Shown: one piece after another, positions 7,951 to 56,347 of the stretch
Layout: every line of letters begins with the position of its first letter
How positions within the stretch are numbered: the first letter of the stretch is position 1
NCBI GenBank assembly: GCA_963731745.1
Contig: CAVSWT010000032.1
Span: forward strand, 35,369 to 99,368
Length of the DNA stretch: 64,000 bases
Reading direction: 5' to 3'
Source: an uncultured Ignavibacteriales bacterium
GTDB lineage: Bacteria; Bacteroidota; Ignavibacteria; Ignavibacteriales; Ignavibacteriaceae
Position numbers and translations under genes: made by a program
The notes under the pieces: model-generated
The model's database searches: none
Seen by the model: only the letters and a program-made list of their open reading frames with translations
What the model was told of the DNA's origin: nothing

Positions 7951-8035
7951 ATTCGTTCGTTTTTAGTTCTAACAAAATAAAGTAAGTAATTATTAAGAAT
8001 AAATTATACTAGATATAATTTAGGAGATAATTTAT

Positions 8036-8293: not shown

Positions 8294-8294
8294 T

Positions 8295-16713: not shown

Positions 16714-16780
16714 TTTAGCCCCTAAAATTTTATTGAACAACAACAATTTAATTCATTTAGTAATTTACAGCAAGAAAAAT

Positions 16781-30140: not shown

Positions 30141-30290
30141 AATGATTTTAAAATTAAATTCTTGTAAAAATAGAAAAAAAATATCATCATTTAGCAATCT
30201 TGACTTTTTTGTATAGATTGTTTACGTTTGAAAAGAGAAAATAAATCAATATTTGTAAGAATTCTCAAATAATGTTTGTTAGGAGAATTA

Positions 30291-31739: not shown

Positions 31740-31840
31740 TTATGTTTTGTCGTTCCAAATTTTAATTGAAAACTATTTAATTCATAAGATGCTGAATCAA
31801 GTTCAGCATGACGGAATAAGAAAATAATTTAAGGAATAAA

Positions 31841-32611
31841 ATGTTAGAAGTTAAAAATCTATTCGTAAAAATTGAGGGAAAAGAAATATTAAAAGGTATT
31901 AATCTAAAAATAAATGCCGGCGAAGTTCATGCAATTATGGGACCGAATGGTTCAGGTAAAAGCACTTTAGCTTCCGTGCTTGCGGGAAAAGAAGAATATG
32001 AAGTAACCAAAGGTGAAGTAATATTTAACGGCAAAAATTTATTCGATCTTTCTACCGAAGATAGAGCAAGAGAAGGTATATTTTTAGCTTTTCAATATCC
32101 TGTTGAGATTCCTGGAGTGAGCAATACAAATCTTTTAAAAACAGCTCTAAATGAAATAAGAAAGTACAGAGGTGAAGAAGAATTAGATACAATGGATTTT
32201 CTTACCTTAATAAAAGATAGAATGAAATTAGTTGAATTAGACCAATCTCTGCTTAGCCGTTCTGTTAACGAAGGATTTTCCGGCGGTGAGAAAAAAAGAA
32301 ATGAAATTTTTCAGATGGCAGTGTTAGAGCCGAAGCTTTCAATTCTTGATGAAACAGATTCGGGACTTGATATTGACGCATTGAGAATTGTTGCAAACGG
32401 TGTGAATAAATTGAAGACAAAAGATACTGCAACTATAGTGGTTACGCATTATCAGCGATTGCTTAATTACATTGTGCCGGATTTTGTTCATGTGCTTTAT
32501 AATGGAAGAATAGTAAAATCAGGCGGCAAGGAATTAGCTTTTGAGCTTGAAGAAAAAGGTTATGATTGGATAAAAGAGGATAAGAACGAATTAGTTGAAT
32601 CTAATAATTAA
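31841..32611 (+). CDS. sufC: Fe-S cluster assembly ATPase SufC
   Basis: Walker A GPNGSGKST, ABC signature FSGGEKKRNEI, Walker B LSILDETDSGLD. Confidence 0.95.
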   Translation: MLEVKNLFVKIEGKEILKGINLKINAGEVHAIMGPNGSGKSTLASVLAGKEEYEVTKGEVIFNGKNLFDLSTEDRAREGIFLAFQYPVEIPGVSNTNLLKTALNEIRKYRGEEELDTMDFLTLIKDRMKLVELDQSLLSRSVNEGFSGGEKKRNEIFQMAVLEPKLSILDETDSGLDIDALRIVANGVNKLKTKDTATIVVTHYQRLLNYIVPDFVHVLYNGRIVKSGGKELAFELEEKGYDWIKEDKNELVESNN

Positions 32612-32716
32612 TGTTAAGATAAGTGTTGTACATAAACTCAATTTCTTAAAGAAATAGGTTTATAAAAAACTACTAATTTTTGTTAACAAAAAAGATTTTG
32701 GAGCTAAAATAAGAAG

Positions 32717-34033: not shown

Positions 34034-34154
34034 TTCATTAAATGGTAATTATTGTCAGTCTGAATTTGTCTACGACTGATGATTTATAATCAAGTCACGT
34101 TTTGACAAACTTAATGTGACGACATCATTCTTAAATTATAAATATTTTTAAAAA

Positions 34155-35405
34155 ATGAGTATAGAAACTTCTTCAATAAATAGAATTGCTTTTGATGTAG
34201 AAAGAATCAGAAATGATTTTCCGATTTTGAAACAAAAAGTTCACAGTAAGCCATTGGTTTATTTTGACAATGCCGCAACTACTCAAAAACCACAGGCGGT
34301 TATTGATTCACTGACGAATTATTATTCAACAATAAATTCAAATATACATAGAGGAGTTCATGCTTTAAGTGAAGCGGCTACTGAGGCATTTGAAAATTCA
34401 AGAATCAAAATTCAAAGGTATATAAATGCTAAAAGCGAAAAAGAAATAATTTTTACTCGTGGTACAACTGAAGGAATAAATTTAGTTGCAAATTCTTTTG
34501 GTAAAAGTCATTTGAATGAAGGTGACGAAATTATTATTTCCGCAATGGAACATCATTCAAATATAGTCCCCTGGCAATTGCTTGCATCAGAGAAAAAATT
34601 AAATTTAAAAATAATTCCCATTAATGATGATGGTGAAATAATATTTGAAGAATTTGAAAAATTAATTTCAAATAAAACAAAATTAATTTCAGTAGTATAT
34701 GTTTCAAATTCTTTAGGCACAATAAATCCAATTGAACGGATTATTCAAACTGCTCATGCAAATAATATCCCGGTTTTAATTGATGCTGCTCAAGCTGTCA
34801 GCCACTTCCCTATAGATGTTCAAAAATTAGATTGTGACTTCCTTGCTTTTTCAGGACACAAGCTTTATGGCCCAACAGGGATTGGAGTACTTTACGGCAA
34901 ACAAGATTTATTAGAATCGATGCCTCCATTTATGGGCGGCGGAGATATGATTTCAAAAGTAACTTTTGAAAAAACTACTTTCAACGAATTGCCTTATAAA
35001 TTTGAAGCCGGCACATCGAATATTGCAGATGCAATTGGATTAGGTGCGGCGATTGATTATGTACAGAATATCGGCTTGGAAAATATTTATCATCATGAGA
35101 AAGATATTCTCGATTACGCAACAAAAGAAATTTTAAATTTAGGCAAAGTTAAATTGATTGGAACTGCAAAAAATAAAAGCGGAGTTTTATCCTTTATTAT
35201 TGAGGACATTCATCCGCATGATGTGGGTACATTTGTCGATTTTGAAGGAATTGCAATTAGAACCGGACATCATTGCACACAGCCGGTAATGGATAGGTAT
35301 AATATTCCAGCCACTTCGCGTGCATCATTTGCAATATATAATACAAGAGAAGAAGTTGATCTTTTTATTAAAGCGTTAAAAAAAGTTTCAGAGGTTTTTA
35401 ATTAA
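34155..35405 (+). CDS. sufS: Cysteine desulfurase SufS (class V aminotransferase)
   Basis: YFDNAATTQKP, PLP lysine context FSGHKLYGPTG, active-site loop RTGHHCTQP. Confidence 0.9.
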   Translation: MSIETSSINRIAFDVERIRNDFPILKQKVHSKPLVYFDNAATTQKPQAVIDSLTNYYSTINSNIHRGVHALSEAATEAFENSRIKIQRYINAKSEKEIIFTRGTTEGINLVANSFGKSHLNEGDEIIISAMEHHSNIVPWQLLASEKKLNLKIIPINDDGEIIFEEFEKLISNKTKLISVVYVSNSLGTINPIERIIQTAHANNIPVLIDAAQAVSHFPIDVQKLDCDFLAFSGHKLYGPTGIGVLYGKQDLLESMPPFMGGGDMISKVTFEKTTFNELPYKFEAGTSNIADAIGLGAAIDYVQNIGLENIYHHEKDILDYATKEILNLGKVKLIGTAKNKSGVLSFIIEDIHPHDVGTFVDFEGIAIRTGHHCTQPVMDRYNIPATSRASFAIYNTREEVDLFIKALKKVSEVFN

Positions 35406-35860
35406 TGGATGCGGAATTAAGAGAGTTGTATCAGCAAGTAATTTTAGATCATAATAAAAGTCCAAGAAATTTTAGGAAGTTAGAAAACGCAAATCATTTT
35501 GCTGAGGGCTATAATCCGTTATGCGGAGATAAAATTGATATTTATTTGTTTGTCGAAGATGATAAAGTAAAGGATATTTCTTTTCAAGGAAATGGGTGCG
35601 CTATTTCAAAAGCATCCGCATCATTGATGAGTTCAATTGTAAAAGGCAAAACAGTTAGTGAAACAAAAGAGTTGTTTGAAAAATTTCATGATTTAATTAC
35701 AGGAAAAATAGATAACGATTCTGCATTTGATACTCTTGGAAAATTGTCTGTATTCGCCGGAGTAAAAGAATTTCCATCAAGAGTAAAATGCGCTTCGCTT
35801 GCTTGGCACACAATGAATGCAGCATTGAAAAATGAAGAACAAAATGTTACGACTGAATAA
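35405..35860 (+). CDS. sufU: SUF-system NifU-family scaffold / sulfur acceptor SufU
   Basis: NPLCGDKIDI, GNGCAISKASAS and VKCASLAW (Cys/Asp ligand set). Start overlaps the sufS stop. Confidence 0.85.
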   Translation: MDAELRELYQQVILDHNKSPRNFRKLENANHFAEGYNPLCGDKIDIYLFVEDDKVKDISFQGNGCAISKASASLMSSIVKGKTVSETKELFEKFHDLITGKIDNDSAFDTLGKLSVFAGVKEFPSRVKCASLAWHTMNAALKNEEQNVTTE

Positions 35861-35885
35861 ATTTTTAAAATGAATGAATATTTAA

Positions 35886-36227
35886 ATGGAAAATGAAACA
35901 AAAGTTATGGCTGAAATAAACAAACAAGCTTTAGAAGATAGAATTATTCAGGTTTTAAAATCCTGTTACGATCCTGAAATTCCTGTAGATATTTTTGAGC
36001 TTGGTTTAATTTATGAAATTAGAATAGACAACGAAGCAAATGTTATATTAAAAATGACTTTAACATCTCCTGCTTGTCCTGTTGCCGGTTCATTGCCTGG
36101 AGAAGTCGAAAGCAAAGTTGCTTCAATTCCGGAAGTGAATAGCTGCAAGATTGAATTAGTTTGGAATCCGCCGTGGGATAAAGATATGATGTCCGAAGTC
36201 GCAAAGGTGGAATTAGGATTTATGTGA
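35886..36227 (+). CDS. sufT: SufT / DUF59 (MIP18-family) Fe-S assembly protein
   Basis: DPEIPVDIFELGLIY ... MTLTSPACPVAG is the DUF59 signature. Confidence 0.8.
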   Translation: MENETKVMAEINKQALEDRIIQVLKSCYDPEIPVDIFELGLIYEIRIDNEANVILKMTLTSPACPVAGSLPGEVESKVASIPEVNSCKIELVWNPPWDKDMMSEVAKVELGFM

Positions 36228-36248
36228 AATTAAAGTCAAAAATCAAAT

Positions 36249-36305
36249 TTCAAAAGTCAAAATAAATTTAAAAACTTTTTTGAATTTTGACCTTTGACTT
36301 TTGAA
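36249..36305 (+). terminator. Imperfect hairpin built from AAAGTCAAA(A) repeats, possible attenuator or terminator after sufT
   Basis: TTCAAAAGTCAAAAT (36249-36263) pairs with ATTTTGAC(cttt)GACTTTTGAA (36284-36305). The stem is AT-rich, so function is uncertain. Confidence 0.3.
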
Positions 36306-36357
36306 TTCATTATAGAAGTAAAAAATTAATCGATTAATAAATATAAAAGGAGTACCC

Positions 36358-36891
36358 ATGTTCAACATACTTTCTCGTCAGCCTATGTATGATCAAGATG
36401 CTGTACAGCCAATGAGAGACGAATTGGTTGCAGTTGGATTTGAAGAATTGCTAACACCCGAAAAAGTTGACGAAGCATTACAGGTAAAAGATGATAAGAC
36501 TGCTTTGGTAATGATAAACTCAGTGTGCGGATGTGCTGCGGGAAGTGCACGTCCAGGAGTTTCACTTGCACTACAAAATAATATTATCCCTGACAAACTT
36601 TATACAGTTTTTGCGGGTCAGGAAAAAGATGCAGTTGATAGAGTTCGACAAATGGTTAAAGAATATCCGCCTTCATCACCAAGTGTAGCATTATTTAAAA
36701 ATGGAGTTTTGATTTATTTCATGCAAAGATTAGATATTGAAGGCTACAATGCTCAACATATTGCAAACGAATTGATAAATGTTTTTAATGAACATTGTTC
36801 TGCAAATGGCCCTTCAATTCCTGCTGAAGCATTTGCTGAAGTACAATACGCAAAACAGTGCGGATCAAAAATTCCGCTTTATAAAGCTTAA
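36358..36891 (+). CDS. Bacilliredoxin (BrxA/BrxB, YphP/YqiW DUF1094 family) with a ~30-aa C-terminal extension
   Basis: Colinear with my recollection of B. subtilis YphP: PMRDELVAVGFEEL, INSVCGCAAGSARP (CGC redox motif), VFAGQEKDA, PSSPSVALFKNG, IEG. Confidence 0.85.
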   Translation: MFNILSRQPMYDQDAVQPMRDELVAVGFEELLTPEKVDEALQVKDDKTALVMINSVCGCAAGSARPGVSLALQNNIIPDKLYTVFAGQEKDAVDRVRQMVKEYPPSSPSVALFKNGVLIYFMQRLDIEGYNAQHIANELINVFNEHCSANGPSIPAEAFAEVQYAKQCGSKIPLYKA

Positions 36892-36992
36892 TGGTTTAAA
36901 GAATAAGCGAATGATTGGATGAGTTAAACTTATTCAATCATTCATTTTCTAAAAATAAGATTAGATTTTTTGATTTAAAAAAGTTAAAAAAA

Positions 36993-37457
36993 ATGAAATT
37001 CAGTTCACAAGAAGAATTTGGCTTAAGATGCTTGTTAAGAATTGGTAATGCGCCTAACGGATTAACAATTCCTGAAATAAGTGAGATGGAAGGAATTTCA
37101 ACTGCTCTTGCAGGCAAGCTTTTAAGGTTACTTCGATTAGGCGGATTTATTGATAGTTCCAGGGGTCAAAGCGGCGGTTACAAATTATCACGTCCCGCAG
37201 ATGAAATAATTATTGGCGAAGTTCTCGAAGTATTAGGAGGAAAGTTATTTGAATCTGGTTTTTGTGATGATCACGCCGGCACTGAAATGATTTGCACTCA
37301 CACAGTTGACTGTTCAATAAGATCATTGTGGCGAACTGTTCAAAATTTATTAGACAGTGTTTTGAGTAAAACTACTCTCCAAAATTTACTTGGAAGTGAA
37401 AACGAAGTGAAAGTTTTAGTAAATACTTTAATATCAAATGAAGAATTATCAAATTAA
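36993..37457 (+). CDS. Rrf2-family (IscR/SufR-like) transcriptional regulator with a 3-Cys cluster
   Basis: MKFSSQEEFGLRCLLRI is a typical Rrf2 start, followed by a wHTH. Cys ligand spacing is C-x9-C-x5-C (CDDHAGTEMICTHTVDC). The ATG at 36993 is preferred over the track's TTG at 36915. Confidence 0.8.
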   Translation: MKFSSQEEFGLRCLLRIGNAPNGLTIPEISEMEGISTALAGKLLRLLRLGGFIDSSRGQSGGYKLSRPADEIIIGEVLEVLGGKLFESGFCDDHAGTEMICTHTVDCSIRSLWRTVQNLLDSVLSKTTLQNLLGSENEVKVLVNTLISNEELSN

Positions 37458-39873: not shown

Positions 39874-40929
39874 ATGCCGAAAAAATTCTTATTCATTCCG
39901 ACATTTTTAATATTTTTCTTATTTAATATTAATACAAATGCACAAACTGTAATCGCAAAATATGCCGGTGAATTTATGGCATTGGGTGTCGGCGGAAGGC
40001 CATCGGGAATGGGCGGCGCTTTTACTGCAATTGCAAATGATGCAACAGCAGGATATTATAATCCGGCGGGTTTAGCACGTTTGAACTATCCGGAAATATC
40101 GCTAATGCATTCCGAACAATTCGGCAGCTTGGTTAATTATGATTATGCGGCAGTTGCAATTCCTTTCGGCAAAGATTTAACTTTTAGCGTTAGTGGAATT
40201 AGATTAGCCGTAGATGGAATACCGGACACTAGAAATGCAATTTATGATGTGAATGGTGATGGAATTGCTGACATAAATGATGTTAATGATCCCAACTTTA
40301 GGCCTCAGACTGATTTGATTACGTATTTTAGTAATCAAGATTATGCTTTTTATTTTTCCTTTGCAAAAAGACAATCAGATAATTTTTCTTATGGCGGTAA
40401 TGTGAAAATTATCAGAAGAGATATTGGTGATGCGGGAGCTACCGGAATTGGAATTGATGTAGCAGCCTTGTATTCGCCATTAAAAGATTTTTTTGTCGGC
40501 GCAAATTTACAAGACGTAACTACAACCTTAGTTGCATGGAGCACTGGTCGAAATGAACTTATAACACCAACGTTGAAATTAGGTGCAGCTTACGGCATTG
40601 ATTTTTTAGGCGGCAAAATTACTCCAGCTTTAGATTTTGATATAAGATTTGAAAACAGACAATTCGCTTCGCAATTTAATATCGGCCCGGTTAGTTTCGA
40701 TGCACATTCAGGACTTGAATTTAATTATAAAAACATCTTCGCAATTCGCGGCGGATATTCAGATGTTAAACAGTTTACAATCGGGGCAGGTGTAAAACTT
40801 CCCAAATTGAATATCGATTATTCATTTGCACGCTTCAATGCTTCTTCATTAGACAGGTTAGATGACACTCATCGAATTTCCTTGATACTTACTTTAGAAG
40901 AGCCTAAATTTTTAAGGGATGGAATTTAG
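39874..40929 (+). CDS. Outer-membrane beta-barrel protein, PorV/PorQ-like
   Basis: Signal peptide ending NAQ. The segment GEFMALGVGGRPSGMGGAFTAIANDATAGYYNPAGLA resembles the PorV/PorQ-family N-terminal signature. Alternating beta-strand pattern through to the C-terminus. Confidence 0.45.
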   Translation: MPKKFLFIPTFLIFFLFNINTNAQTVIAKYAGEFMALGVGGRPSGMGGAFTAIANDATAGYYNPAGLARLNYPEISLMHSEQFGSLVNYDYAAVAIPFGKDLTFSVSGIRLAVDGIPDTRNAIYDVNGDGIADINDVNDPNFRPQTDLITYFSNQDYAFYFSFAKRQSDNFSYGGNVKIIRRDIGDAGATGIGIDVAALYSPLKDFFVGANLQDVTTTLVAWSTGRNELITPTLKLGAAYGIDFLGGKITPALDFDIRFENRQFASQFNIGPVSFDAHSGLEFNYKNIFAIRGGYSDVKQFTIGAGVKLPKLNIDYSFARFNASSLDRLDDTHRISLILTLEEPKFLRDGI

Positions 40930-46109: not shown

Positions 46110-47654
46110 TTATTTAGGATTAAATGCAAAAATATGACTGCCATAACTTCTTAATTCAACATAAAGCCCTTGAGTAATGATATCAGAAACGGAGCGTTTA
46201 TATTTTTGATTGTCTAATAAATCTACCAATTCAATTTCAGGGTTTGTATTACTTGGATCAAATTTTACTCTGCATTGAGAAGTATTTTCTGAAAAATTAA
46301 TAATAGTTAATCGATAATTATTTTCCAGTCTCCATAAAAAGACAAATATATTTTCGTAACTATGGTTGTCGGGTGAAACCGGGAATGCTTTTAGTTGTAA
46401 AAATTCACCGTCGATAAAGATTCTATCTTTGGTAATCTTTAATATTTTATCATAAAATTCTTTTATCCTTTCGGATTCCTTTTCTTTTGGTTCTCTGCCA
46501 AGCTGAACCGGAAGTTTAATTTTTTTGCCTTCAAACTGACCATCATAATAAAGTTTCATTCCAGGCACCGAGCTTATTAAAATTGCTGCTGCCATGGAAG
46601 CTTGTTTTCCAAATTTTTCTATCGCTCTTTTCTCATCATGGTTTTCAATAAATCTAACAGACTTTAATTGAAAAGATAAATCAGCGTGTAAATGATTTCT
46701 TACACCTGTTAAATCGTGTGATGATAATCTATCCAATAATCTTTTATCATATGTATAGTCGAATCCTAATTGCTGCAATTGCCATTCTAAATCCCAATAT
46801 GCTTCGGCAATAAAAATAAATTCTTTGTTTTTATTTTTAACTTTTCTTATAGCATATTGCCAAAATTCTTCAGTTGGTTTATGAATATCATGTTTGTTAA
46901 TCACTCCTAGCCATGTATTTTTAAAGACGTTATTTAGCTGAAGCATTGCCATATCGCATCGAACTCCATCGCAGACTTCAGTTAACTTTAACAGTGTGTT
47001 GGTTAAAAACTCTCTAGCATTTTCATTGAAAAGATTCAACTGAATTGTATCTGTCCAGGCGGGAAATAACGGATCTCGGCCATGCGCAAAAATTTTATCT
47101 GGCTGAAGATCAGATTTGAAAAAAGTGTGTGGATCATTTTTAAATATTTCTTCATCTGCTTGAAGAAATATTTCTGGATTAGTTTGAATTAATTTAGTCC
47201 CACCACTTAAATGATTGGGAATAAAATCAAGAATTAATTTTAATCCCTCTTTATTTAAATCTGCTTTGAATTTTTTCAAATCTTCCCAGGAGCCATAATC
47301 GGGATTAACTTCATAGCTGCTTATTGAAAAAGGAGAGCCTATTACGTCTTCCTCTTTCCAATCTTTAAGTGCTTTGTTGTACGCGGAAATTAATCCAGAC
47401 TCAAAGCAGCATTCTTTAATGATGTTTTCGTCACTCGTTTTCCACATACCCATAAGCCAAAAAAAACTGATGCCTTTTTCAGCAAGAGTACGAAAATAAT
47501 TCGTCGGGATGCCTGAAATTTTTGCCTGCTCACCAAAATTTTTAATCCATAATCTAAAGTTTATTTCATAAATTTTAGGATTTATAGTACCCAATTTTTG
47601 CCTAATTTTTTTTGAAGGTGTTGTAAAAGTTACGTAATATTTAAGTATTTTCAA
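46110..47654 (-). CDS. Alpha-amylase-family (GH13-like) glycoside hydrolase
   Basis: LILDFIPNHLS (region I), GVRCDMAML (region II), FIFIAEAYWD (region III), RFIENHDEKR (region IV). Confidence 0.75.
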   Translation of the reverse strand: MKILKYYVTFTTPSKKIRQKLGTINPKIYEINFRLWIKNFGEQAKISGIPTNYFRTLAEKGISFFWLMGMWKTSDENIIKECCFESGLISAYNKALKDWKEEDVIGSPFSISSYEVNPDYGSWEDLKKFKADLNKEGLKLILDFIPNHLSGGTKLIQTNPEIFLQADEEIFKNDPHTFFKSDLQPDKIFAHGRDPLFPAWTDTIQLNLFNENAREFLTNTLLKLTEVCDGVRCDMAMLQLNNVFKNTWLGVINKHDIHKPTEEFWQYAIRKVKNKNKEFIFIAEAYWDLEWQLQQLGFDYTYDKRLLDRLSSHDLTGVRNHLHADLSFQLKSVRFIENHDEKRAIEKFGKQASMAAAILISSVPGMKLYYDGQFEGKKIKLPVQLGREPKEKESERIKEFYDKILKITKDRIFIDGEFLQLKAFPVSPDNHSYENIFVFLWRLENNYRLTIINFSENTSQCRVKFDPSNTNPEIELVDLLDNQKYKRSVSDIITQGLYVELRSYGSHIFAFNPK

Positions 47655-47895
47655 CTATTAGTTTTTAAAGAATTTTAAAATCACTGCTAAACCAACTTTT
47701 TTCACAAATTATGTTCTATTATTTCTAAAAAGATAAAATTAGAAAGATAGTTGCTATGTGGAATAATAATTGTTAAGCAATTATGATTTCATGCTTTTCA
47801 TCGTTACCTAATTAATAATTTGTGATTTAGTTATCAGATTTAAAAGTGATTAAGTTATAACTTGTTTACTTAAATTAAGAAAATTTGAGGCGTTA

Positions 47896-48843
47896 ATGAT
47901 TGAAACTAAAAAAACAGTTGAGCCAGCAATTGCTACAAAGTCGACTGGCAATGGTACCAACGGGCTAGAGGGAAAAGTAAATTATTACAAAGATGCTGCC
48001 CTTAACAAAATAAACTTTTCTGTGATTCTAAAGCCTTTGTCAATTTCTTTCGGTGCTCTTATAATATCATTTTTTCTCGACCTATCCTCCGTTCCAATTC
48101 TTGGAAATGTAACTGTTAATATTGCTAAATATTTATTCCCCACCTGGGAACCAGTGCAAGAATCTTTTGCCCCATATAGTTTTTGGTGGCTGCCTGTATT
48201 AGTATTTGTATTTTTTGTTTTCATGGCATTTTTAGCTTATAATAAACTTAAGGTTGAAATTAGCAGAACTCCCGTATCAGAAACTATAGATAGAATTATA
48301 AATTCTTACACAAGTATAGTTGACGGGCTTGCTACAGCGCTTCCATTAATTGGTGCGGCAATACTTTTAATAAGCATTAAACTTGGGGAAGAAGTCTTTC
48401 TCGGTTTGTCTGTTCCGTTTGAAATTAAAGCCTTAATAGTTTTAGCAATTGGTAAATTATTCGAACCGGTTTTAGATCAACTCGGCGTGGAGTTCCAAAA
48501 TGTAGTTACTCATGTTCATGATATCAGAGAAAAATATTATTCAGAAACTAGATATGAAGATGAACGAAGTAATATTTCTAATTTACCGGAAATATCTCTT
48601 CAAGATCTTGAACGATACAAAACCGTCTTACAACAGTCTTCAACTTTAAGCGAAAGCATGGTGAAAAATTTTAATGCTGTAAGTGTTATTCTTCAAAAAA
48701 TTAATGAAAGCCAAAGTATCACTTCTGAGAAAATTGATAAGTTGAATCAATTAACTCAATCAATAACTAACGCCGCAAAGTCACTAAGTGACGAAAAAAC
48801 TATATCCGGCTTAAAATCATTAGAATCAATCGTAAAAAAATAA
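47896..48843 (+). CDS. Polytopic membrane protein with C-terminal coiled coil; GldL/MotA-ExbB-like stator-subunit candidate
   Basis: GAGG RBS and four predicted TM helices. The last hairpin, PLIGAAILLISIKLG..FEIKALIVLAIGKLFEPV, resembles GldL TM1/TM2 (GMGAAVVIVGALFK..TEALIFALSAFEPV, recalled from memory). The C-terminal 120 aa are Q/S/K-rich helical. The CDS call is solid; the function is tentative. Confidence 0.4.
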   Translation: MIETKKTVEPAIATKSTGNGTNGLEGKVNYYKDAALNKINFSVILKPLSISFGALIISFFLDLSSVPILGNVTVNIAKYLFPTWEPVQESFAPYSFWWLPVLVFVFFVFMAFLAYNKLKVEISRTPVSETIDRIINSYTSIVDGLATALPLIGAAILLISIKLGEEVFLGLSVPFEIKALIVLAIGKLFEPVLDQLGVEFQNVVTHVHDIREKYYSETRYEDERSNISNLPEISLQDLERYKTVLQQSSTLSESMVKNFNAVSVILQKINESQSITSEKIDKLNQLTQSITNAAKSLSDEKTISGLKSLESIVKK

Positions 48844-48852
48844 AACACAACT

Positions 48853-49809
48853 ATGATTAAAAAAGAAAGAGATAGTAAATTTATTATTTACCAGGTTCTT
48901 TACATTTTCGTGATAACCGTTCTGGCGTTAAAGGGAGCTGATTTGGATTTAAGCAGAGTAGTTTCAAAAGATAAGGCTGTAGATAAAAGTGTGCGCGATT
49001 CACTTGTTGTAATGATTGATTCTCTAAACGCTCTAGGACTTAAATTCGATATTAAAATTCAAGAAAATACTCTCGAAGAAAATCAGGAATTGAAAGAGAA
49101 GATCGCATCGATGAATATGAAAATGAAAGATCTTACACAAAAAATTAAAGAAATTCCACCGGAAGTAAAAAAGGAAGAACCAAAGCCTCCTGAAAAAGAA
49201 CAAACCAGGTTGCAATTGCCAATATCAAAAAGCGAAACTTTTATTCAATATACTTGGAACGTTGCAAGAAATACAGGTAATGTACAAACAGCACTTTATG
49301 ATCCAGATAATATGAATTCACCTTTAGTAGTAATTCCACCAAACTCCGAAAAGAAGTTTAATTTAACTGACCAAACTGAAGTTATTGCAAAATTTGGAAG
49401 TCAGGAGTCTAAAATTCAGGTTGTTCCAAATAAGCCGCCTGAAATAAAAATTGAGAGAGTTACAACTAAGATGAACGCCTCGGATATTTATGTTCGGGAT
49501 TTGCAGAGAATAACTGTATTTAAAGTTACTATAGTGGATGAAAGACCGGATCAGCTTAAAATTGTTAATTCAGGACCTATATCAGTTTCTGGCCCAACAA
49601 AAGATAACAAAGGAAATTTAGTTTATAACGTTTCATTAAAAATTGCCTCTACTCAAACAAAATATGATGAGTGGATTGATCGATATGGAAACCTTCGAGA
49701 ACCTGATGGAAGATATAAAGTAAACTTTTTCTTCACTGCCACTGACCAAATATCAAAGGATCGTGTTCAAGTTGGTGACTCATTTTATTTTACTGACTTT
49801 TCTAAATAA
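48853..49809 (+). CDS. Single-pass membrane protein; short GldM/PorM-like candidate
   Basis: The N-terminus MIKKERDSKFIIYQVLYIFVITVLALK aligns without gaps to GldM residues 1-27 (..PRQKMINLMYLVFIAMLALN). Matches are a basic residue at 9, Tyr17, Ile21 and LAL at 24-26. This is followed by a K/E-rich coiled coil and a beta-rich periplasmic part. It starts 9 nt after the upstream gene. Confidence 0.4.
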   Translation: MIKKERDSKFIIYQVLYIFVITVLALKGADLDLSRVVSKDKAVDKSVRDSLVVMIDSLNALGLKFDIKIQENTLEENQELKEKIASMNMKMKDLTQKIKEIPPEVKKEEPKPPEKEQTRLQLPISKSETFIQYTWNVARNTGNVQTALYDPDNMNSPLVVIPPNSEKKFNLTDQTEVIAKFGSQESKIQVVPNKPPEIKIERVTTKMNASDIYVRDLQRITVFKVTIVDERPDQLKIVNSGPISVSGPTKDNKGNLVYNVSLKIASTQTKYDEWIDRYGNLREPDGRYKVNFFFTATDQISKDRVQVGDSFYFTDFSK

Positions 49810-49829
49810 ATTATTGCGGAAATCAAATT

Positions 49830-50960
49830 ATGAAAAATAAAGTACTGCTGCTCTTTACATTACTTGTTCTTATAGTTGCTGTAAAAACTAATGCTCAAGA
49901 GGATGAAGAAAAAATAGTTTATTATCAAATGGAACCTCTTGATGACAGTTTATTCATTCATATACAAAATGAAGTTTTCATCGATCCGCCTGATCCAAAA
50001 GCTGAAATTATCGTTGACTTAAGAGATCCAAATGACCAGACTATTTCCATTAAAGGATCACTCTACCCTTTCCTAGCTTTAACTCCTGAAACAAGAGCAA
50101 AGATTATAACTTATCCTTTTAAAATTAATTTAGAAGAAAGTGTAAACTACGGAAGTGTTTTTACTCGTGTAGTCGACAAACTGAGTCTTAAAAAAGTGTT
50201 TTCTCCACCAACATTAACACAGATTTCTTCAACTCGTTATTTCGTCAATCCTTTCTTGCAATTATTTGGCGGCGAAAGATTTGGATTGCCGTTAAAGAAT
50301 GATATAGGAATTTCATTAGGTTTGGGAACCCCCTATTCCGGTCCGCTTGAAACAAATTTTATGGAAGCTAATTTTCATATACTAGGTTTTAAAGCCGGTG
50401 CTTTTACACGAATTGACGGCTTTGTGACAATAAAAGATGTAAACAACCACAACAATTTATATGTAACGGGTGGATATCAATTCAGTTATGTGCTTCCATT
50501 CGGGAACTTTTTTGAGGTCGGATTTCAAGGTCCTTTCGACACTCCATCAGATGCAGATTATAAGAATTTTCAGCAGTATGATACATTGGGATATCATGCA
50601 AAAATTGTAGATAAAGAATATCTAGACTGGGAATTGAGATATCCAATCAGTTTACTTGGATCTACCAGAGGAAAATTTTATGTAGCAAAATATTTAGGCG
50701 AATGGCATGCCGGTTATACAGGCCGGGAGTTATCTTTGGCTGGCAGCACTTTTGATTTTCGCTTTGATGCAATGCCCAAAAGTGATGTAAGACAGCCTCA
50801 ATATGTTGTTGATTTGTTAGTTCAAAAAGTTTTCGAAACCTGGGCATTTAGTGCTTTCGCAATTGGCCCTTCAGCTATATTTTCCAGACAAGATGATGGT
50901 AATTTTGGAATCACTTCCATATTTGTAAATTTTCGTCTAAAAGTGGGGACATCATTTTAA
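49830..50960 (+). CDS. Outer-membrane beta-barrel protein, unknown family (paralog A)
   Basis: Signal peptide ..VAVKTNAQ, amphipathic beta-strand pattern and a C-terminal beta-signal FVNFRLKVGTSF*. Confidence 0.6.
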   Translation: MKNKVLLLFTLLVLIVAVKTNAQEDEEKIVYYQMEPLDDSLFIHIQNEVFIDPPDPKAEIIVDLRDPNDQTISIKGSLYPFLALTPETRAKIITYPFKINLEESVNYGSVFTRVVDKLSLKKVFSPPTLTQISSTRYFVNPFLQLFGGERFGLPLKNDIGISLGLGTPYSGPLETNFMEANFHILGFKAGAFTRIDGFVTIKDVNNHNNLYVTGGYQFSYVLPFGNFFEVGFQGPFDTPSDADYKNFQQYDTLGYHAKIVDKEYLDWELRYPISLLGSTRGKFYVAKYLGEWHAGYTGRELSLAGSTFDFRFDAMPKSDVRQPQYVVDLLVQKVFETWAFSAFAIGPSAIFSRQDDGNFGITSIFVNFRLKVGTSF

Positions 50961-51036
50961 TATAATTTTTAAGCTACAATTCGATACATTTAAAAAAGTT
51001 TGGATAAATTATTTTATCACTTAATATGGTGACACC

Positions 51037-52200
51037 TTGCAATTTAAATTTTTACAGAATTATCATTACAAAAGAATTTTTTGGATAATTTTCTTTTCAC
51101 TAATTATAATAACTAATATTACTGCTCAAGAACAAGAAAAAAATCCTGCGCTTATAAAATATTTTCAAATGGAACCATTTGATGACAGTTTATTCGTCAA
51201 AATTCAGAATGAAGTATTTATTGATCCTCCCGATCCCAAGGCCGAAATAATTGTTGACTTACGTGACCCTAATGATCAATCAGTTGCTATTAAAGGTGCA
51301 TTGTATCCTTTTTTAGCATTTACACCCGAAACACGCGCGAGAATAATAACATATCCATATAAAATAGATTTGGAAGAGGATATAAATTATGGAAGTGTAT
51401 TCACACGTGTTCTTGAAAAAATGAAATTAAGCAAAGTGATTGCACCGCCAAGCAAGGCTCAAATAAGTCCTGGACTGCAATACATCAACCCATTTTTACA
51501 AGCTTATGGCGGTGAAAGATTTGGTTTCCCAATAAAAGATGATATAGGATTTTCAGTCGGAATTGGAACTCCTTACTCAGGAATATTGGAAACAAATTTT
51601 GTTGAAGCAAATTTTCATATCGTGGGATTTAAAGGAGGAATATTTAGCTCAGTTGACGGACTTACTGAACTTAGAACAAAGAACAACCATAATAATTTAT
51701 ATACAACTTTTGGAATACAGCTTGGATACGTAGTTCCATTTGGTAATTTTTTAGAATTCAGTCTTCAAGACGTAACAAATGAACCATCTAAAAATCAACT
51801 GAATAAGTATAGTAAAAATGATACGCTTGGATATAAAGCAAAAGTTTTACAAGATACTTACTTAAGTTGGGAATTCCGTTACCCCATACAAGTATTAGGT
51901 TCAACCAGATCAAAATTCTATGTTGCTAATTATCTTAGTGAATGGCATGTCGGATATACCGGACGCGAACTTTCCTTAGGAGGAAGTACTTTTGATTTGC
52001 GTTTAGATTATATGCCGAAAAGTGATGTTCGCCAGCCTCAGTTAGTTTTTGAAGTGCTTACACAAAAACTTTTTGGAAGCTGGGCTTTTAGTGCTATCTC
52101 ATTAGGGCCTTCGGCTGTATTTGCAAATACGGATTCAGGGAATTTTGGTTTGCTGACAATTTTTGTTAATGCAAGAATAAAAGTAGGAACCTCTTTCTAA
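51037..52200 (+). CDS. Outer-membrane beta-barrel protein, unknown family (paralog B)
   Basis: Colinear with paralog A, sharing blocks QNEVFIDPPDPKAEIIVDLRDPNDQ, GGERFG.P and GYTGRELSL.GSTFD.R.D.MPKSDVRQPQ. It ends FVNARIKVGTSF*. The only in-frame start is the TTG at 51037. Confidence 0.6.
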   Translation: MQFKFLQNYHYKRIFWIIFFSLIIITNITAQEQEKNPALIKYFQMEPFDDSLFVKIQNEVFIDPPDPKAEIIVDLRDPNDQSVAIKGALYPFLAFTPETRARIITYPYKIDLEEDINYGSVFTRVLEKMKLSKVIAPPSKAQISPGLQYINPFLQAYGGERFGFPIKDDIGFSVGIGTPYSGILETNFVEANFHIVGFKGGIFSSVDGLTELRTKNNHNNLYTTFGIQLGYVVPFGNFLEFSLQDVTNEPSKNQLNKYSKNDTLGYKAKVLQDTYLSWEFRYPIQVLGSTRSKFYVANYLSEWHVGYTGRELSLGGSTFDLRLDYMPKSDVRQPQLVFEVLTQKLFGSWAFSAISLGPSAVFANTDSGNFGLLTIFVNARIKVGTSF

Positions 52201-52204
52201 TTTT

Positions 52205-52969
52205 TTATTTAAGAAATTTCGCCGCACTTTTATCAAGATACCAATCGGATTTTTCGTCTAACGAATGAACCATTGCAGCAGGATATTTATTTCCAGATGC
52301 ATGATCTGTAAATATTTCCTTTATTTTATCCGCTTTTTCTTCGCCTGAAATAAAAAATGTAACTCGCGAAGAATTATTAATTAATTCTTCCGTCATACTT
52401 ATTCGTTTCTGCCCGCTCTGAGGATGAGTCGCAACCCCAAATAAATTCTCTGCAATATGTTCAAGTTTTTGATTAGGAAATAAAGATGCCGTATGCCCAT
52501 CTGCTCCCATTCCCAATAATACCCAATCAAATTGAGGATAGTTATTTTCACTAGCAGGTAAAATCTGATTCACCAATTTTGCATATCGCGCTGCTTCGTT
52601 TACAGGATTACTTTCGCCTTTAATTCTATGAATATTATCCCGGGGTATTTTTACATTTTCAAATAATAATTGTTCTGTCATTCCAAAATTACTTTCGGGA
52701 TCATCCGGGGCAACACATCTTTCATCCACCCAAAAAATCATTAACTTATTCCAAATAATTTTTTCGGAATAAGCTGTTGTTGCCAATAACTTGAACAAAG
52801 CTTTAGGAGTACTCCCGCCAGAAATTGCTAAATAGAAATTTTCTTTTTGAGTATTTTTAAGAGCGCTTATTAATTCATCTGCAACATGAATTGCCATCGC
52901 TTGGGGGCTATCAAATATTACTAAATTTCTTTTTATTACCATTTCTTTATTTTTATTCACAATTCGCAA
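52205..52969 (-). CDS. pgl: 6-phosphogluconolactonase
   Basis: LAISGGSTPKALF and LLGMGADGHTASLFP. Overlaps the zwf stop. The true start may be the Met at 52942. Confidence 0.85.
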   Translation of the reverse strand: MRIVNKNKEMVIKRNLVIFDSPQAMAIHVADELISALKNTQKENFYLAISGGSTPKALFKLLATTAYSEKIIWNKLMIFWVDERCVAPDDPESNFGMTEQLLFENVKIPRDNIHRIKGESNPVNEAARYAKLVNQILPASENNYPQFDWVLLGMGADGHTASLFPNQKLEHIAENLFGVATHPQSGQKRISMTEELINNSSRVTFFISGEEKADKIKEIFTDHASGNKYPAAMVHSLDEKSDWYLDKSAAKFLK

Positions 52970-54507
52970 TAAAGATCTTCGTCAGTGAGATTTTTACATG
53001 GATATCGCCATTCAATATTCGGCTCATCAAATAAATCAAAAGATTCCTTTGGCCCCCAAGTGCCGGCAGGATATCCGTAAACTTTTATGTTAGGATTTTC
53101 ATTCCATGCTTCAATAATTGGATCTACAAATTTCCAACATTCTTCTACAGCATCACCACGCGTATAAAGAGTTGAATCGTTTAATAAAGCATCAAGTAAA
53201 AGTCTTTCATAAGCCGCTGGTAATTCAACTTCGGTTATATCGGAATAATGAAAATCCATATTAACTTTTTGAATTTTAAATCCGGCTCCGGGAGTTTTTA
53301 ATCCAAACTTCAATAATATACCTTCATCCGGTTGGATTCTTATTACAAGCTGATTTGTAAATTCATAATGATTATCTCTTGCGAAAAGAAAATGGGGAGT
53401 ATTTTTAAAATGAATTACTACCTCAGTCACTTTTGTTGGCAGCCTTTTACCTGCACGAATGTAAAAAGGAACTCCGCCCCATCTCCAGTTATCAATATAT
53501 AATTTTACAGCAGCAAACGTTTCAGTTTTTGAATTAGGAGATACGCCTTTTTCTCCTCTATAACCTAATAATTTTTTACCTTTAACATTGGATTCTACAT
53601 ACTGGCCTCGAACAGTAAATTTATCAACTTCCTCTTTTTTTATTGGCCGCAATGCTTGAAAAACTTTTAAGGTTTCATTTCTAATAGAATTTGCATCAAA
53701 GTTTGCAGGCGGTTCCATTGCTATAAAAGCCGCAACCTGAAGCATATGATTTTGAATCATATCTCTTAAGGCTCCAATTCCCTCATAATAACCGCCGCGG
53801 CTTTCAACGCCTATATTTTCTGCTGATGTTATTTCTACCCGTTCAATATAGTTTCTATTCCAAAGCGGTTCGAAAATTCCATTTGCGAATCTTAATACCA
53901 AAACATTTTGAACTGTTTCTTTGCCAAGATAATGATCGATTCGATAAACCTGATCTTCATCGAAAACAGAGTGAAGTTTTCTATTTAGCTCTTCAGCAGA
54001 TTGGAGATTAAAACCAAAAGGTTTTTCAACAATAATTTTTTTCTCATTGCTTTCACCATTTTTGTGAAGATTTGATTTTCGCAGTCCATCAATAATTGTA
54101 TCGTATAATTTAGGCGGTGTGGATAAATAAAATATATGTTTCCCATCTATTTTAAATTTCGAATCTAATTCTGAAAGTTTTTGTTTTAATTTTGAATAAT
54201 CATCCGGATTCTCAGTTTCAATGGAAATATAAAATATACTTTTAACAAAATTCTCAATTGTATTTTTATCTATATTTTTTCTATCTGAATATTGAATTAT
54301 ACTATCTAACATTTTCTTTCGAAAGTCTTCATCAGAATATTCACTTCTACTCACACCAAGAATTGCAAATCCGCTGCAGAACAACTTCTGGTTATAAAGT
54401 TCGAATAAGGCAGGTATTAATTTTTTTTTAGTAAGATCTCCCGAAGCACCAAAAATTACTATAATGCTATTTTCCGGAGTGTGCATATTACTGTTTTTTA
54501 ATCCCAT
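52957..54507 (-). CDS. zwf: Glucose-6-phosphate dehydrogenase
   Basis: IFGASGDLTKKKL, RIDHYLGKE (active-site signature) and MIQNHMLQV. Confidence 0.95.
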   Translation of the reverse strand: MGLKNSNMHTPENSIIVIFGASGDLTKKKLIPALFELYNQKLFCSGFAILGVSRSEYSDEDFRKKMLDSIIQYSDRKNIDKNTIENFVKSIFYISIETENPDDYSKLKQKLSELDSKFKIDGKHIFYLSTPPKLYDTIIDGLRKSNLHKNGESNEKKIIVEKPFGFNLQSAEELNRKLHSVFDEDQVYRIDHYLGKETVQNVLVLRFANGIFEPLWNRNYIERVEITSAENIGVESRGGYYEGIGALRDMIQNHMLQVAAFIAMEPPANFDANSIRNETLKVFQALRPIKKEEVDKFTVRGQYVESNVKGKKLLGYRGEKGVSPNSKTETFAAVKLYIDNWRWGGVPFYIRAGKRLPTKVTEVVIHFKNTPHFLFARDNHYEFTNQLVIRIQPDEGILLKFGLKTPGAGFKIQKVNMDFHYSDITEVELPAAYERLLLDALLNDSTLYTRGDAVEECWKFVDPIIEAWNENPNIKVYGYPAGTWGPKESFDLFDEPNIEWRYPCKNLTDEDLYCEL

Positions 54508-54516
54508 ATTTTTTCC

Positions 54517-55410
54517 TTAGTTAGATTTTACTGCATGGCCGCCAAATTCATTTCTTAACGCAGCAAGTACTTTCATTGCAAAAGATTCTTGTTCTCTTGA
54601 ACGAAATCTATTGAACAATGAAGCAGAAATTGTATGAGCAGGTACTTCAAGTTCCATAGCGGTCTCAACTGTCCAACGGCCTTCCCCGCTGTCTTCCACG
54701 TATCCTTTAATTTTAGAAAGGCCAGGATCATTTGAAAGAGCGAGAGATGCTAATTCAAGCAGCCAGGAATTTACTACGCTGCCATGCTGCCACACTTTTG
54801 AAACACCTGTTAAATTAATATTAAATTTTGACTTTTCCATTATTTCAAATCCTTCTGCAATAGACTGCATCATGCCGTATTCTATTCCGTTATGAACCAT
54901 CTTTACAAAATGCCCGGCACCATTTTCACCGCAATGGAAATAACCTTCAACAGGAGCGAGAGTTTTAAAAATTGGTTCAACATAATCTACAATTTCTTTT
55001 TCACCACCATACATCAAACAGTAACCATTTTTTAGTCCCCAAATTCCTCCGCTAACTCCGCAATCAATAAAATGAATTGCTTTTTCATTTAATAATTTTG
55101 CTCTTCGAACAGAATCTTTATAAAATGAATTTCCGCCATCAATAATTATATCATCCTTATTCAATAAAGGTATCAATGAATCAATTAAGTCGTCTATGAT
55201 TTTACCCGAAGGAACCATTAACCAAATTATTTTTCTTCCTTTTAATTTAGAAGTTAACTCCTCTAACGAGTTTGAGGCTTCTGCTCCCTTTTTTGCTACT
55301 AAATCTATTTGTTCTTTTGATTTATCAAACACAGCTACTTGATGATCTTTTAATAATCTTTCTACCATGTTGCTTCCCATTTTACCGAGACCAATCAATG
55401 CTAATTCCAT
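54517..55410 (-). CDS. gnd: 6-phosphogluconate dehydrogenase, decarboxylating (short ~300-aa form)
   Basis: LIGLGKMGSNMV (NAD(P)-binding), GVSGG and GAGHFVKMVHNGIEYG. Confidence 0.9.
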   Translation of the reverse strand: MELALIGLGKMGSNMVERLLKDHQVAVFDKSKEQIDLVAKKGAEASNSLEELTSKLKGRKIIWLMVPSGKIIDDLIDSLIPLLNKDDIIIDGGNSFYKDSVRRAKLLNEKAIHFIDCGVSGGIWGLKNGYCLMYGGEKEIVDYVEPIFKTLAPVEGYFHCGENGAGHFVKMVHNGIEYGMMQSIAEGFEIMEKSKFNINLTGVSKVWQHGSVVNSWLLELASLALSNDPGLSKIKGYVEDSGEGRWTVETAMELEVPAHTISASLFNRFRSREQESFAMKVLAALRNEFGGHAVKSN

Positions 55411-55582
55411 TTTCTATCTCCATTTTTAATTTTTTTAACTCATAAGTGTTAATGACACAAAAGTTTAATTAAAAAGTTAATTATAATAATCAATGCAAGG
55501 TTTGCTATTTAACACATTTAGTAATCTCTTAAGAATTATTTAATTTAACGATAACAACTGTCAGCAATATTTTAATTTGAAC

Positions 55583-56347
55583 ATGAAACAAATAATTATT
55601 CTTTGGTCAAGTGCAATCTTAATAACTTTTTTGGCTGGCTTTATTCAAAGCGGTCTTAGTGAGTATTATCCTATAACAGGAACTTTTGGTATTGAAGGTA
55701 AAAAGGTTTCTTACAAGTTGGAAAAATTATATAGAGGTAATGAAAATTACCACATTCAAATCTTAACAGACATAGAAGGTTTATCCGGGAAAATTTATTG
55801 GCGAGTAAAAAATTCCGGAAAATCATGGCAAGAAATTGATATGACCTCCTCAAAAAAAATATTAGAAGGTTATCTGCCCGTTTTGAAGCCCGAAAAGCAA
55901 ACAGAATATTTCATTAAAATATTTTTTAAAGGTAAAGAATATAAAATACCTGGAGACAGAATCATTTCTATAAAATTTTTAGGCAATGTACCGCCAACAA
56001 TAATGAATCTTTATACATTTTTCCTTTTATTTGGAATAGTACTAAGTACGCGAACCGGCCTGGAATACTTCAACATAAATGCTAAAACTAAAAAGTTATC
56101 TTTAATTACTTTCTTTTTCTTTTTTTCACTTGCAATAGTTATCACTCCATTTAAGTCAACTTATGAATTAAATGCCATCAATCATAGTATACCAACTATA
56201 TCCAGGCTTTATGATTTTAAATCTTTATTTATGTTAGGAATCTGGACAGTGGCTGTATTGTTTATTTTTAAATCAAAATTTTCGAAGCTGTACGCATTGA
56301 TTTTTGCTTCAGTTATAATATTAGTTTTTGTCTTATTAAAAAATTAA
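55583..56347 (+). CDS. Membrane protein, hypothetical
   Basis: N-terminal TM helix, a ~120-aa soluble segment, then 4 TM helices. I recognise no motif. The ATG at 55583 is preferred. Confidence 0.45.
   Translation: MKQIIILWSSAILITFLAGFIQSGLSEYYPITGTFGIEGKKVSYKLEKLYRGNENYHIQILTDIEGLSGKIYWRVKNSGKSWQEIDMTSSKKILEGYLPVLKPEKQTEYFIKIFFKGKEYKIPGDRIISIKFLGNVPPTIMNLYTFFLLFGIVLSTRTGLEYFNINAKTKKLSLITFFFFFSLAIVITPFKSTYELNAINHSIPTISRLYDFKSLFMLGIWTVAVLFIFKSKFSKLYALIFASVIILVFVLLKN

Follow-up and report, generated by a model that had tools for sequence, protein, structure and literature searches.

An uncharacterised cassette of four genes, here called g1 to g4, lies in the genome of an uncultured Ignavibacteriales bacterium (GenBank assembly GCA_963731745.1, contig CAVSWT010000032.1), within the 64,000-nucleotide stretch of that contig which we analysed and refer to as the window. 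The genes are co-directional, and the open reading frame (ORF) map agrees with the original prediction in placing gaps of 9 nt (g1/g2), 20 nt (g2/g3) and 76 nt (g3/g4) between them, behind a 241-bp intergenic region (Table 1). That prediction, made from the sequence alone, had also seen no recognisable function in any of the four genes and had proposed an undescribed system. Both points stand: searches of g1 to g4 against Pfam and NCBIfam returned no named-family match at E ≤ 10, the PADLOC defence models gave no match below E 0.08, and no named system was matched in these collections or among PDB sequences. What lies here is a real, strongly conserved and undescribed three-component envelope module.

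Table 1. Features of the cassette, its surroundings and its variant forms. Positions are those of the window, except in the rows for related loci, which carry their own numbering.
Feature	Position	Strand	Remarks	Source
g1	47896-48843	+	315 aa	ORF map
g2	48853-49809	+	318 aa	ORF map
g3	49830-50960	+	376 aa	ORF map
g4	51037-52200	+	387 aa, TTG start	ORF map
g1 hairpin of transmembrane (TM) helices, TM3-turn-TM4, residues 146-192	48331..48471	+	Highest conservation within the family	
g2 N-terminal segment, residues 4-30	48862..48942	+	Conservation 0.98, all helical faces invariant	
Intergenic region 5' of g1, 241 bp	47655..47895	+	Common to the divergent GH13 gene; presumed promoter region	ORF map
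GH13 alpha-amylase-family gene	46110-47654	-	Divergent from the cassette	
pgl-zwf-gnd string	52205-55410	-	Oxidative pentose-phosphate genes, converging on g4	
Type IX secretion system (T9SS) outer-membrane protein, PorV/PorQ family	39874-40929	+	PorV_fam 122.8 bits, cutoff 90	
790-aa secreted protein	14374-16746	-	Laminin_G_3, beta-propeller, Por_Secre_tail (39 bits, cutoff 27)	
Related locus L081	3222-9565		Complete A-type cassette and B-type cassette (B part 6786-9565) arranged in tandem on one metagenomic contig	
Related locus L082	298-4432		B-type five-gene form	
Related locus L084	1669-5796		B-type five-gene form	
Related locus L086	9001-14470		B-type five-gene form	
Related locus L088	10001-15578		B-type five-gene form	
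Related locus L083	5860-15449		698-aa OmpA-domain protein directly 5' of g1-, g2- and g3-like genes	
Related locus L087			Plain g1-g2-g3 triad in a lineage of 44% GC	

The first gene encodes an inner-membrane protein. Four hydrophobic segments (about residues 45-65, 96-116, 146-162 and 167-189) are followed by some 125 C-terminal residues that form a helical or coiled-coil tail, cytoplasmic by the predicted topology, and the four-TM protein with a cytoplasmic coiled coil that had been proposed is thereby borne out. Six Lys/Arg residues in the N-terminal segment and four in the 117-145 loop, against one in 66-95 and none in the 163-166 turn, are consistent with an N-in/C-in topology, although net charge varies only slightly between them. 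The hairpin formed by the last two helices holds most of the conservation: TM3 and TM4 reach 0.95 in the core family and still 0.77 and 0.74 across the divergent superfamily, where the remainder of the protein lies at 0.4-0.5 and TM1 and TM2 at 0.45-0.47. Within the hairpin Pro150, Gly153, Pro174, Glu176, Lys178, Lys187 and Phe189 are wholly or almost wholly invariant, and Glu176, which sits in the middle of TM4, is invariant in the core family and retained in at least 90% of the superfamily. The motif GTALPL[IL]GAA ... VPFE[IV]K..[IV]LA.AKLFE survives in relatives of 25-35% identity, and the weaker representatives (25-36% identity, 235-437 aa) keep the core IVDGIGTALPL[IL]GAAILL ... F.GFAVPFE[IV]K.I.[IV]LA.AKLFE[SP]VFD. 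The C-terminus carries a motif of its own, SLSDEKT..GLK.LE.IV.K, and its conservation suggests a putative docking site for a cytoplasmic partner. As an observation in its own right, residues 291-315 (48766-48840) keep the pattern L[KS]D....[KG]L..LE.[IL]....K even in relatives of 25-35% identity. At the 90%-cluster level g1 has 1115 homologues, none with an annotation or a Pfam domain; a profile search of 1.84 billion cluster representatives recovered only 81, and the family is therefore a narrow one. A set of 26 diverse superfamily members found nothing relevant in Pfam or NCBIfam, and the g1 profile found only coiled-coil noise among PDB sequences.

The product of g2 is a type-II bitopic protein, in which a short cytoplasmic sequence (MIKKERDSK) leads into a TM helix at residues 10-26 and a helical region at about 33-100, followed by a Pro/Glu/Lys-rich linker (100-131) and two immunoglobulin (Ig)-like beta-sandwich domains (135-205 and 220-313). 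In the AlphaFold2 model, with a mean predicted local distance difference test (pLDDT) of 64.6, the helices up to residue 100 are of low confidence and the linker is disordered, and the two beta-sandwich domains are modelled at pLDDT about 80-85. Foldseek retrieved only generic Ig-like folds for it (Fc, cadherins, pilins; best E 7e-4), with no PorM or GldM entry among the top 50, and the g2 profile returned coiled-coil noise from the PDB sequences, with neither GldM nor PorM. The striking part of this protein is its N-terminus, where K4, R6, D7, S8, K9, F10, Y13, Q14, Y17, T22, K27, G28, A29 and D30 are invariant and every remote variant retains the helix motif (R)D-x-KF[IV][IL]YQ-x-LYI. Invariance on all faces of a TM helix is as expected of one buried in protein, not in lipid. 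The invariant Asp7 is located at the cytoplasmic boundary. None of the 966 homologues of g2 at the 90%-cluster level is annotated or has a Pfam domain.

The remaining two genes encode secreted proteins of one architecture, g4 being a tandem paralogue of g3 with 61% identity. In g3 a signal peptide (residues 1-22, with a helix at 2-22, cleaved at A|Q) precedes an N-domain (23-157) and a predicted C-terminal beta-barrel region (158-376). The A|Q cleavage site is invariant in the signal peptides of both proteins and fits the 'Q-rule' described for Ignavibacterium album (PMC5837995). Signal peptides and a VGTSF ending had been predicted, and both are present (...KVGTSF in g3 and g4), although across the family, with the pattern ...R[LI]KVGTS[FL], the last residue is Leu oftener than Phe. 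The AlphaFold2 model of g3 (mean pLDDT 60.3) leaves the N-domain without a resolved fold (pLDDT below 50) and gives the region 158-376 as 13-14 long strands with block-mean pLDDT about 56-90, mostly 65-90; the prediction of strand numbers that had been called for speaks for a barrel. Taken with the signal peptides and the beta-signal-like C-terminus, the predicted strands place g3 and g4 in the generic class of putative outer-membrane beta-barrels. The N-domain (49896-50300) is, at 0.84, better conserved than the barrel at 0.75, and remote relatives of g3 keep mainly positions 106 onward. There are 1369 g3 homologues at the 90%-cluster level, none with a Pfam domain. Foldseek gave no significant match to g3 (best E 0.13), and its weak list consists mostly of outer-membrane barrels (FadL, PorB, OmpF, CdiB, BrkA, VDAC/Tom40, OprB, FapF, OmpG). 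A relationship of g3 to PorV, PorQ or FadL-type proteins was considered and is ruled out at the sequence level: g3, g4 and the I. album orthologue of g3 match none of the NCBIfam models PorV_fam, T9SS_PorQ and T9SS_PorP_fam, hhalign aligns the signal peptide alone between g3 and the local PorV2 family, and the FadL fold is merely suggestive (probability 0.41, E 0.28).

That these genes belong together is clear from their distribution. Scanning one genome for each GTDB species for the motif gave 185 matching genomes, and the locus counts out of 80 given here refer to the best 80 of these, all metagenome-assembled genomes of Ignavibacteria. In every sufficiently sequenced locus of the 80, tblastn and hidden Markov model (HMM) searches found g1, g2 and g3 adjacent and co-directional, and the synteny that the original prediction had made a test of its idea is there. 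Only about one quarter of the related loci have a further copy of g3, so the conserved core consists of g1, g2 and g3, with g4 a tandem duplicate specific to the lineage; the four-gene cassette that had been described is real in this genome, but the conserved unit is smaller. Homologues of g1, g2 and g3 are nearly all unnamed or 'hypothetical'; the named ones belong with few exceptions to Ignavibacteria, among them I. album IALB_2935, and the same gene order recurs in remote metagenomic lineages at 25-36% g1 identity.

One might still suppose that the four ORFs are unrelated neighbours, or part of a mobile or defence island, e.g., a Zorya-like one. In keeping with this, a conserved internal regulatory signal was not found: a sigma-70-type promoter scan, with a tool that does not cover Bacteroidota-type promoters, gave no more sites than shuffled sequence, which applies to the presumed promoter region before g1 as well, and a terminator scan stayed at chance level. 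We nevertheless treat this extremely improbable reading as excluded, because the triad is syntenic in all loci and in the remote lineages, its context is one of housekeeping genes, and no PADLOC model matches. The divergent GH13 gene has been kept beside the cassette in most of the 80 loci, I. album included, and is absent in the remote lineages, and its retention probably reflects inherited gene order, not function. On the other side only 4 nt separate the stop codons of g4 and the converging pgl-zwf-gnd string, with no terminator-like site found between them. The flanks hold housekeeping genes, most related loci have conserved neighbours, and GC content is uniform at about 31-34%, with no composition anomaly found.

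What such a module might do is best approached through where its conservation lies. The reading we favour, tentatively and with a little less than even confidence, is that of a transducer of energy resembling a stator, with the g3 barrel coupled to it, for which we infer the assembly, the ion coupling, the force transmission and the contact between g2 and g3. It is favoured because the g2 helix is conserved on all its faces, the TM3-TM4 hairpin is the most conserved part of g1 even over large evolutionary distances, invariant Glu, Pro and Lys lie in mid-membrane in g1, Asp, Lys, Tyr and Gln are invariant at the cytoplasmic end of the g2 helix, and the two genes are only 9 nt apart. Conserved features concentrated in the membrane are needed by an ion-coupled intramembrane complex, not by a mere anchor, and the g2 stalk together with an obligatory outer-membrane partner argues for a trans-envelope device. 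In such a scheme g1 would form oligomers in the inner membrane whose TM3-TM4 hairpins enclose the TM helix of g2. Ions, probably protons, would flow through g1 Glu176 (with Pro174 and Lys178) and the g2 face made up of Asp7, Lys9, Tyr13, Gln14 and Tyr17, and this flow would drive a conformational or rotary movement of g2. The helical stalk, flexible linker and two Ig-like domains of g2 would carry the movement across the periplasm to the g3 barrel, with the conserved periplasmic N-domain of g3 as the likely docking site. The cassette would then work like the GldLM, ExbBD-TonB and TolQRA transducers, without demonstrable membership in any of them. As to the compact trans-envelope machine powered by the proton-motive force (PMF) that the original prediction had envisaged, the parts are in place, namely an inner-membrane multi-TM protein, a bitopic protein spanning the periplasm and an outer-membrane barrel, but kinship to GldLM is not shown and the PMF motor is read from architecture.

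Several observations weigh against a stator-like transducer. Neither g1 nor g2 has significant sequence or profile similarity to any stator family, nor does g2 have fold similarity to one; this had been set beforehand as the result on which the proposed homology would fall, and as a claim of homology it fails. When TM profiles of GldL and GldM were run with HMMER over 4676 ORFs from 1.45 Mb of Ignavibacteria DNA, g1 and g2 were not among the top results. AlphaFold2 models g2 and g3 with no more than moderate confidence (mean pLDDT 64.6 and 60.3, respectively), from shallow alignments. It also should be considered that the adjacent invariant Lys178 could neutralise Glu176 structurally. A control bears on how far the first of these points reaches. 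With hhalign, ExbB finds MotA at a probability of 92.7% (E 4e-7), whereas GldL finds MotA/ExbB at only 0.44%; since GldL and MotA/ExbB, analogous 5:2 motors by structure, are invisible to one another in this test, missing sequence similarity makes it less likely that g1 is a GldL but says little on whether a protein works in a stator-like manner. The MotA/ExbB/TolQ hairpin signature reads SP..GL.GT ... PGIAEAL.ATA.GL. We considered whether 'LPLIG ... PFEIKALIVLAIG' in g1 could be its counterpart and ruled this out, as the hhalign scores against verified ExbB, TolQ and MotA sequences fall inside the shuffle distribution; g1 likewise has no match to PF01618 (MotA/ExbB/TolQ) in Pfam/NCBIfam, and g2, whose periplasmic domains are Ig-like, has none to the ExbD or OmpA families.

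Variant cassettes bring a different possibility into view. In addition to plain triads there is a five-gene B-type form, in which g1' (246-350 aa) is followed by a short g2' of 123-141 aa with the TM and helix only, two secreted proteins and g3', the last duplicated in some cases. The two conserved secreted proteins (about 250-290 aa and 190-250 aa) belong to no known family; that they might be the Ig domains of g2 in detached form is ruled out, as BLAST finds no similarity. Full and variant cassettes stand in tandem in L081, so both can coexist in one genome. Downstream of the B-type cassette, L082, L084 and L088 encode an Lpp-like lipoprotein and a LysM protein, and the 3' part of the operon in L083, which opens with the OmpA-domain protein listed in Table 1, holds four more secreted proteins without a known family and then a TPR/CHAT protein. 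Neighbours of the peptidoglycan-binding or outer-membrane-tethering kind, such as the OmpA-domain, Lpp-like and LysM proteins, would suit a passive or Tol-Pal-like tether, with g1 and g2 anchored in the inner membrane and the g2 stalk binding g3 to attach or space the outer membrane without motor-type energy conversion. The cassette is also widely distributed and keeps its place in the chromosome, as genes with a housekeeping role in the envelope do, and this would fit a tether too, as would the character of g2 as an Ig-domain stalk with a flexible linker. It is in our view unlikely, for it leaves unexplained the invariant charged and polar residues in the membrane and the all-face conservation of the g2 helix, and Pfam detects no peptidoglycan-binding part in the window cassette.

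The layout also invites comparison with export machinery. Tripartite efflux and type I systems combine an inner-membrane component, an N-terminally anchored adaptor of helices and beta domains and an outer-membrane barrel. The cassette resembles these in its layout, and g1 could accordingly be imagined as a PMF-coupled channel, g2 as an adaptor like a membrane fusion protein (MFP) and g3 as an outer-membrane duct for a small molecule, lipid or polymer, with the intramembrane Glu/Lys pair doing the coupling and the duplicated barrel reflecting diversification of substrates or porins. We consider an exporter quite improbable. Pfam and NCBIfam show no similarity to the HlyD/MFP, RND, MFS, ABC or TolC families, a four-TM protein with a short hairpin such as g1 is small for a transporter, and the g2 domains are Ig-like and not the lipoyl or beta-barrel domains of an MFP. 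The 13-14-strand barrel of g3, behind an N-domain of 135 residues, looks plugged or docked, not like an open duct.

If the cassette is instead a stator-like transducer, the question arises of what it would drive, and here the surroundings offer a lead. The secreted 790-aa protein in the window bears a Por_Secre_tail, which indicates that the organism uses type IX-style secretion, and the PorV/PorQ-family protein upstream of the cassette has 'PorV2' as its best NCBIfam model, with 204 bits but below that model's own cutoff of 325. Its orthologue, a PorV2-like gene, shares the strand of the cassette and precedes it by 1-8 kb in 59 of the 80 loci, with only small reverse ORFs between PorV2 and g1 in L050 and L074. 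The I. album copy is 3 kb upstream of the cassette, which is flanked there by two proteins of >1000 aa with the type IX C-terminal domain (CTD); remote cassette-bearing contigs encode CTD proteins as well. One survey (PMC11705866) reports no T9SS protein in Ignavibacterium and Melioribacter apart from SprA, PorV and Plug, and M. roseus is reported to have many carbohydrate-active enzymes with Por sorting domains, yet only Sec and type II secretion were recognised there (PMC3534657); other papers state merely that a T9SS may be present in Ignavibacteriota. The cargo, PorV2 and the reported absence of GldKLMN together raise in earnest the question of what powers the Ignavibacteria T9SS, to which the cassette is a candidate answer. 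We hold it doubtful that g1-g2-g3 is the missing inner-membrane energiser and coupling device of this system, be it as a diverged GldLM homologue or as an independent invention. Elsewhere in the window lie a SUF iron-sulfur cluster assembly region (30276-37457, + strand) with SufB/D, SufS and SufU as well as a bacilliredoxin and an Rrf2-family regulator, and a 256-aa multi-TM protein without a Pfam or NCBIfam match (55577-56347, + strand).

One form of the type IX proposal makes g1 and g2 true homologues of GldL and GldM (PorL and PorM), diverged to an extreme degree, which energise the T9SS, with g3 replacing the coupling through GldK/GldN and PorG/SprF. The original prediction had called the pair GldL/GldM-like, and the fragments of these proteins which it quoted proved accurate against the reference PDB chains 6YS8, 7SAZ, 7SAU, 7SAT and 7SAX. 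The structural paper describes Glu49 of GldL and Tyr17 of GldM as invariant and reports high conservation for Arg9 of GldM, the partner of Glu49, and for Tyr13 of GldL. The gapless correspondences claimed for the N-terminus of g2 are there over GldM 9-27 (Lys9/Arg9, Tyr17/Tyr17, Ile21/Ile21, and Leu24-Ala25-Leu26 against LAM or LAL), and g1 Glu176, at 13 residues before the Phe of 'FEPV' against 9 in GldL, is indeed offset by about one helical turn. The exit motif itself fared less well: the match to g1 exists, but 'FEPV' occurs in only two of the five GldL/PorL structures, and remote g1 relatives have FESV or FDSV in its place; the match thus joins lineage-specific variants and is probably coincidental.

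Relatedness in the proper sense is not demonstrable from these comparisons, neither HMM profiles nor hhalign nor the fold search with g2 giving significant similarity. No GldL model in Pfam or NCBIfam matches g1 at E ≤ 10 or any of the 26 diverse superfamily members at E ≤ 1, the g1 profile does not find the GldL/PorL chains among PDB sequences, and g2 matches neither GldM_N nor GldM_C at E ≤ 10. The hhalign probabilities, 1.0% (E 0.055) and 0.2% (E 0.31) for the g1 hairpin against GldL/PorL from the five structures and 0.9% (E 0.061) for g2 against GldM, do not exceed 1%. The g1-GldL score is reached by 7 of 100 column shuffles. In favour of homology, the g2-GldM score of 16.4 stands modestly above all 100 shuffles (10.8 +/- 1.8); the swapped pairings of g1 and g2 with GldM and GldL score 9.5-14.9. 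The best local alignments (g1 145-196 with GldL 15-65, g2 14-27 with GldM 14-27) and the registers, which pair the functional residues Tyr17/Tyr17 and Lys9/Arg9, also speak for it, as does an acid on the multi-TM and a base on the single-pass subunit, the inverted arrangement of the GldLM type. The cargo in the window, the PorV2-like linkage, the published inventories of Ignavibacterium, Melioribacter and M. roseus and the CTD proteins of the remote contigs can be counted on the same side. Against it are the four TM helices in place of two, Pro150 at the position equivalent to GldL Tyr13, the Glu offset of 4 residues, two Ig domains in place of three and the generic nature of the g2 fold matches. 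The described disulfide coupling of GldK with SprF/PorG (PMC12635249) cannot apply, because g1, g2, g3 and g4 contain no cysteine at all. The linkage to PorV2 could be inherited gene order, because the unrelated GH13 gene is equally retained, and the absence of GldKLMN is based on one BLAST-based paper. Our own search of 1.45 Mb of Ignavibacteria DNA, which is not a genome-wide test, turned up neither GldL nor GldM in canonical form, and the cassette and its flanks hold no gldK-like or gldN-like gene, as had been predicted for the cassette. On balance we find descent from GldLM fairly unlikely.

To our knowledge only a few ion-driven envelope motors have been recognised, namely MotAB, ExbBD, TolQR, AglRQS, GldLM and ZorAB. 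Each such discovery explained how energy is supplied to an outer membrane that is itself unenergised. The cassette adds three protein families without a Pfam or NCBIfam model, present in no fewer than 185 species-level genomes as well as in lineages further removed, which show the hallmarks of a transducer in architecture and conservation and no demonstrable kinship to the known motors. Should it prove to be a motor, it would represent either a new class or a drastically reduced GldLM, and the question of what drives the seemingly orphan T9SS translocon in Ignavibacteria would become open to test. Were that connection true, the T9SS would there be powered by a compact motor which touches the outer-membrane barrel directly, without a PorK/N ring or track. 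Cultured hosts exist, as in I. album with IALB_2935 and the two genes downstream of it. If it is not a motor, it would still be a widespread uncharacterised envelope system deserving of family definitions.

Set beside known systems, the cassette differs from Zorya ZorAB and other known defence systems in that it has no PADLOC match and occupies a conserved housekeeping locus, not a variable island. With PorV, PorQ and PorP-SprF the proteins g3 and g4 share the character of secreted barrels of about the 14-strand class, a T9SS-bearing lineage and a conserved near neighbour of the PorV/PorQ family; g3 differs in its extra conserved N-domain of 135 residues and matches none of these families. The likeness to MotAB/PomAB lies in a four-TM A subunit whose inner hairpin TM3-TM4, with conserved prolines, is highly conserved and whose outer TM1-TM2 are less so, and in a single-pass partner. 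However, the cytoplasmic loop between TM2 and TM3 has about 30 aa in g1 and about 100 aa in MotA, g2 lacks an OmpA-like peptidoglycan-binding domain, and the cassette has no flagellar context. In MotB, ExbD and TolR the essential Asp is intramembrane, whereas the Asp7 of g2 is at the cytoplasmic boundary. The Ton and Tol systems resemble the cassette in having a multi-TM inner-membrane protein and a single-pass partner with conserved charges, a flexible proline-rich element spanning the periplasm, an outer-membrane barrel and a chromosomal distribution of the housekeeping type. They differ in that g2 alone would be both stalk and stator axle, where ExbD and TonB share these parts, and in that g3 has no signatures of the plug or 22-strand barrel of a TonB-dependent receptor.

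The comparison with GldLM and PorLM, the 5:2 motor driven by protons in type IX secretion and in gliding, cuts both ways. On the side of difference, g1 has four TM helices and GldL two, the Glu of g1 is displaced by about one turn, Pro stands for GldL Tyr13 and, in g2, Lys for GldM Arg9. The periplasmic part of GldM/PorM has been described as a helical D1 followed by three Ig-like domains, forming an arch of ~18 nm, and GldM, with about 510 aa, is a far larger protein than g2 with its 318 aa and two Ig domains. The cassette has no gldK or gldN, a novel outer-membrane barrel gene following instead, and its proteins have no cysteines for disulfide coupling. On the side of likeness, both systems have neighbouring genes, one for a protein with a TM hairpin, an invariant Glu within the membrane and a helical tail in the cytoplasm, the next for a bitopic partner, whose N-terminal helix has a basic residue 9 and an invariant Tyr17 and whose periplasmic helices are followed by Ig-like domains. 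They also occur in the same lineage, the Fibrobacteres-Chlorobi-Bacteroidetes (FCB) group or Bacteroidota sensu GTDB, and the host of the cassette encodes both T9SS cargo and PorV-family proteins.

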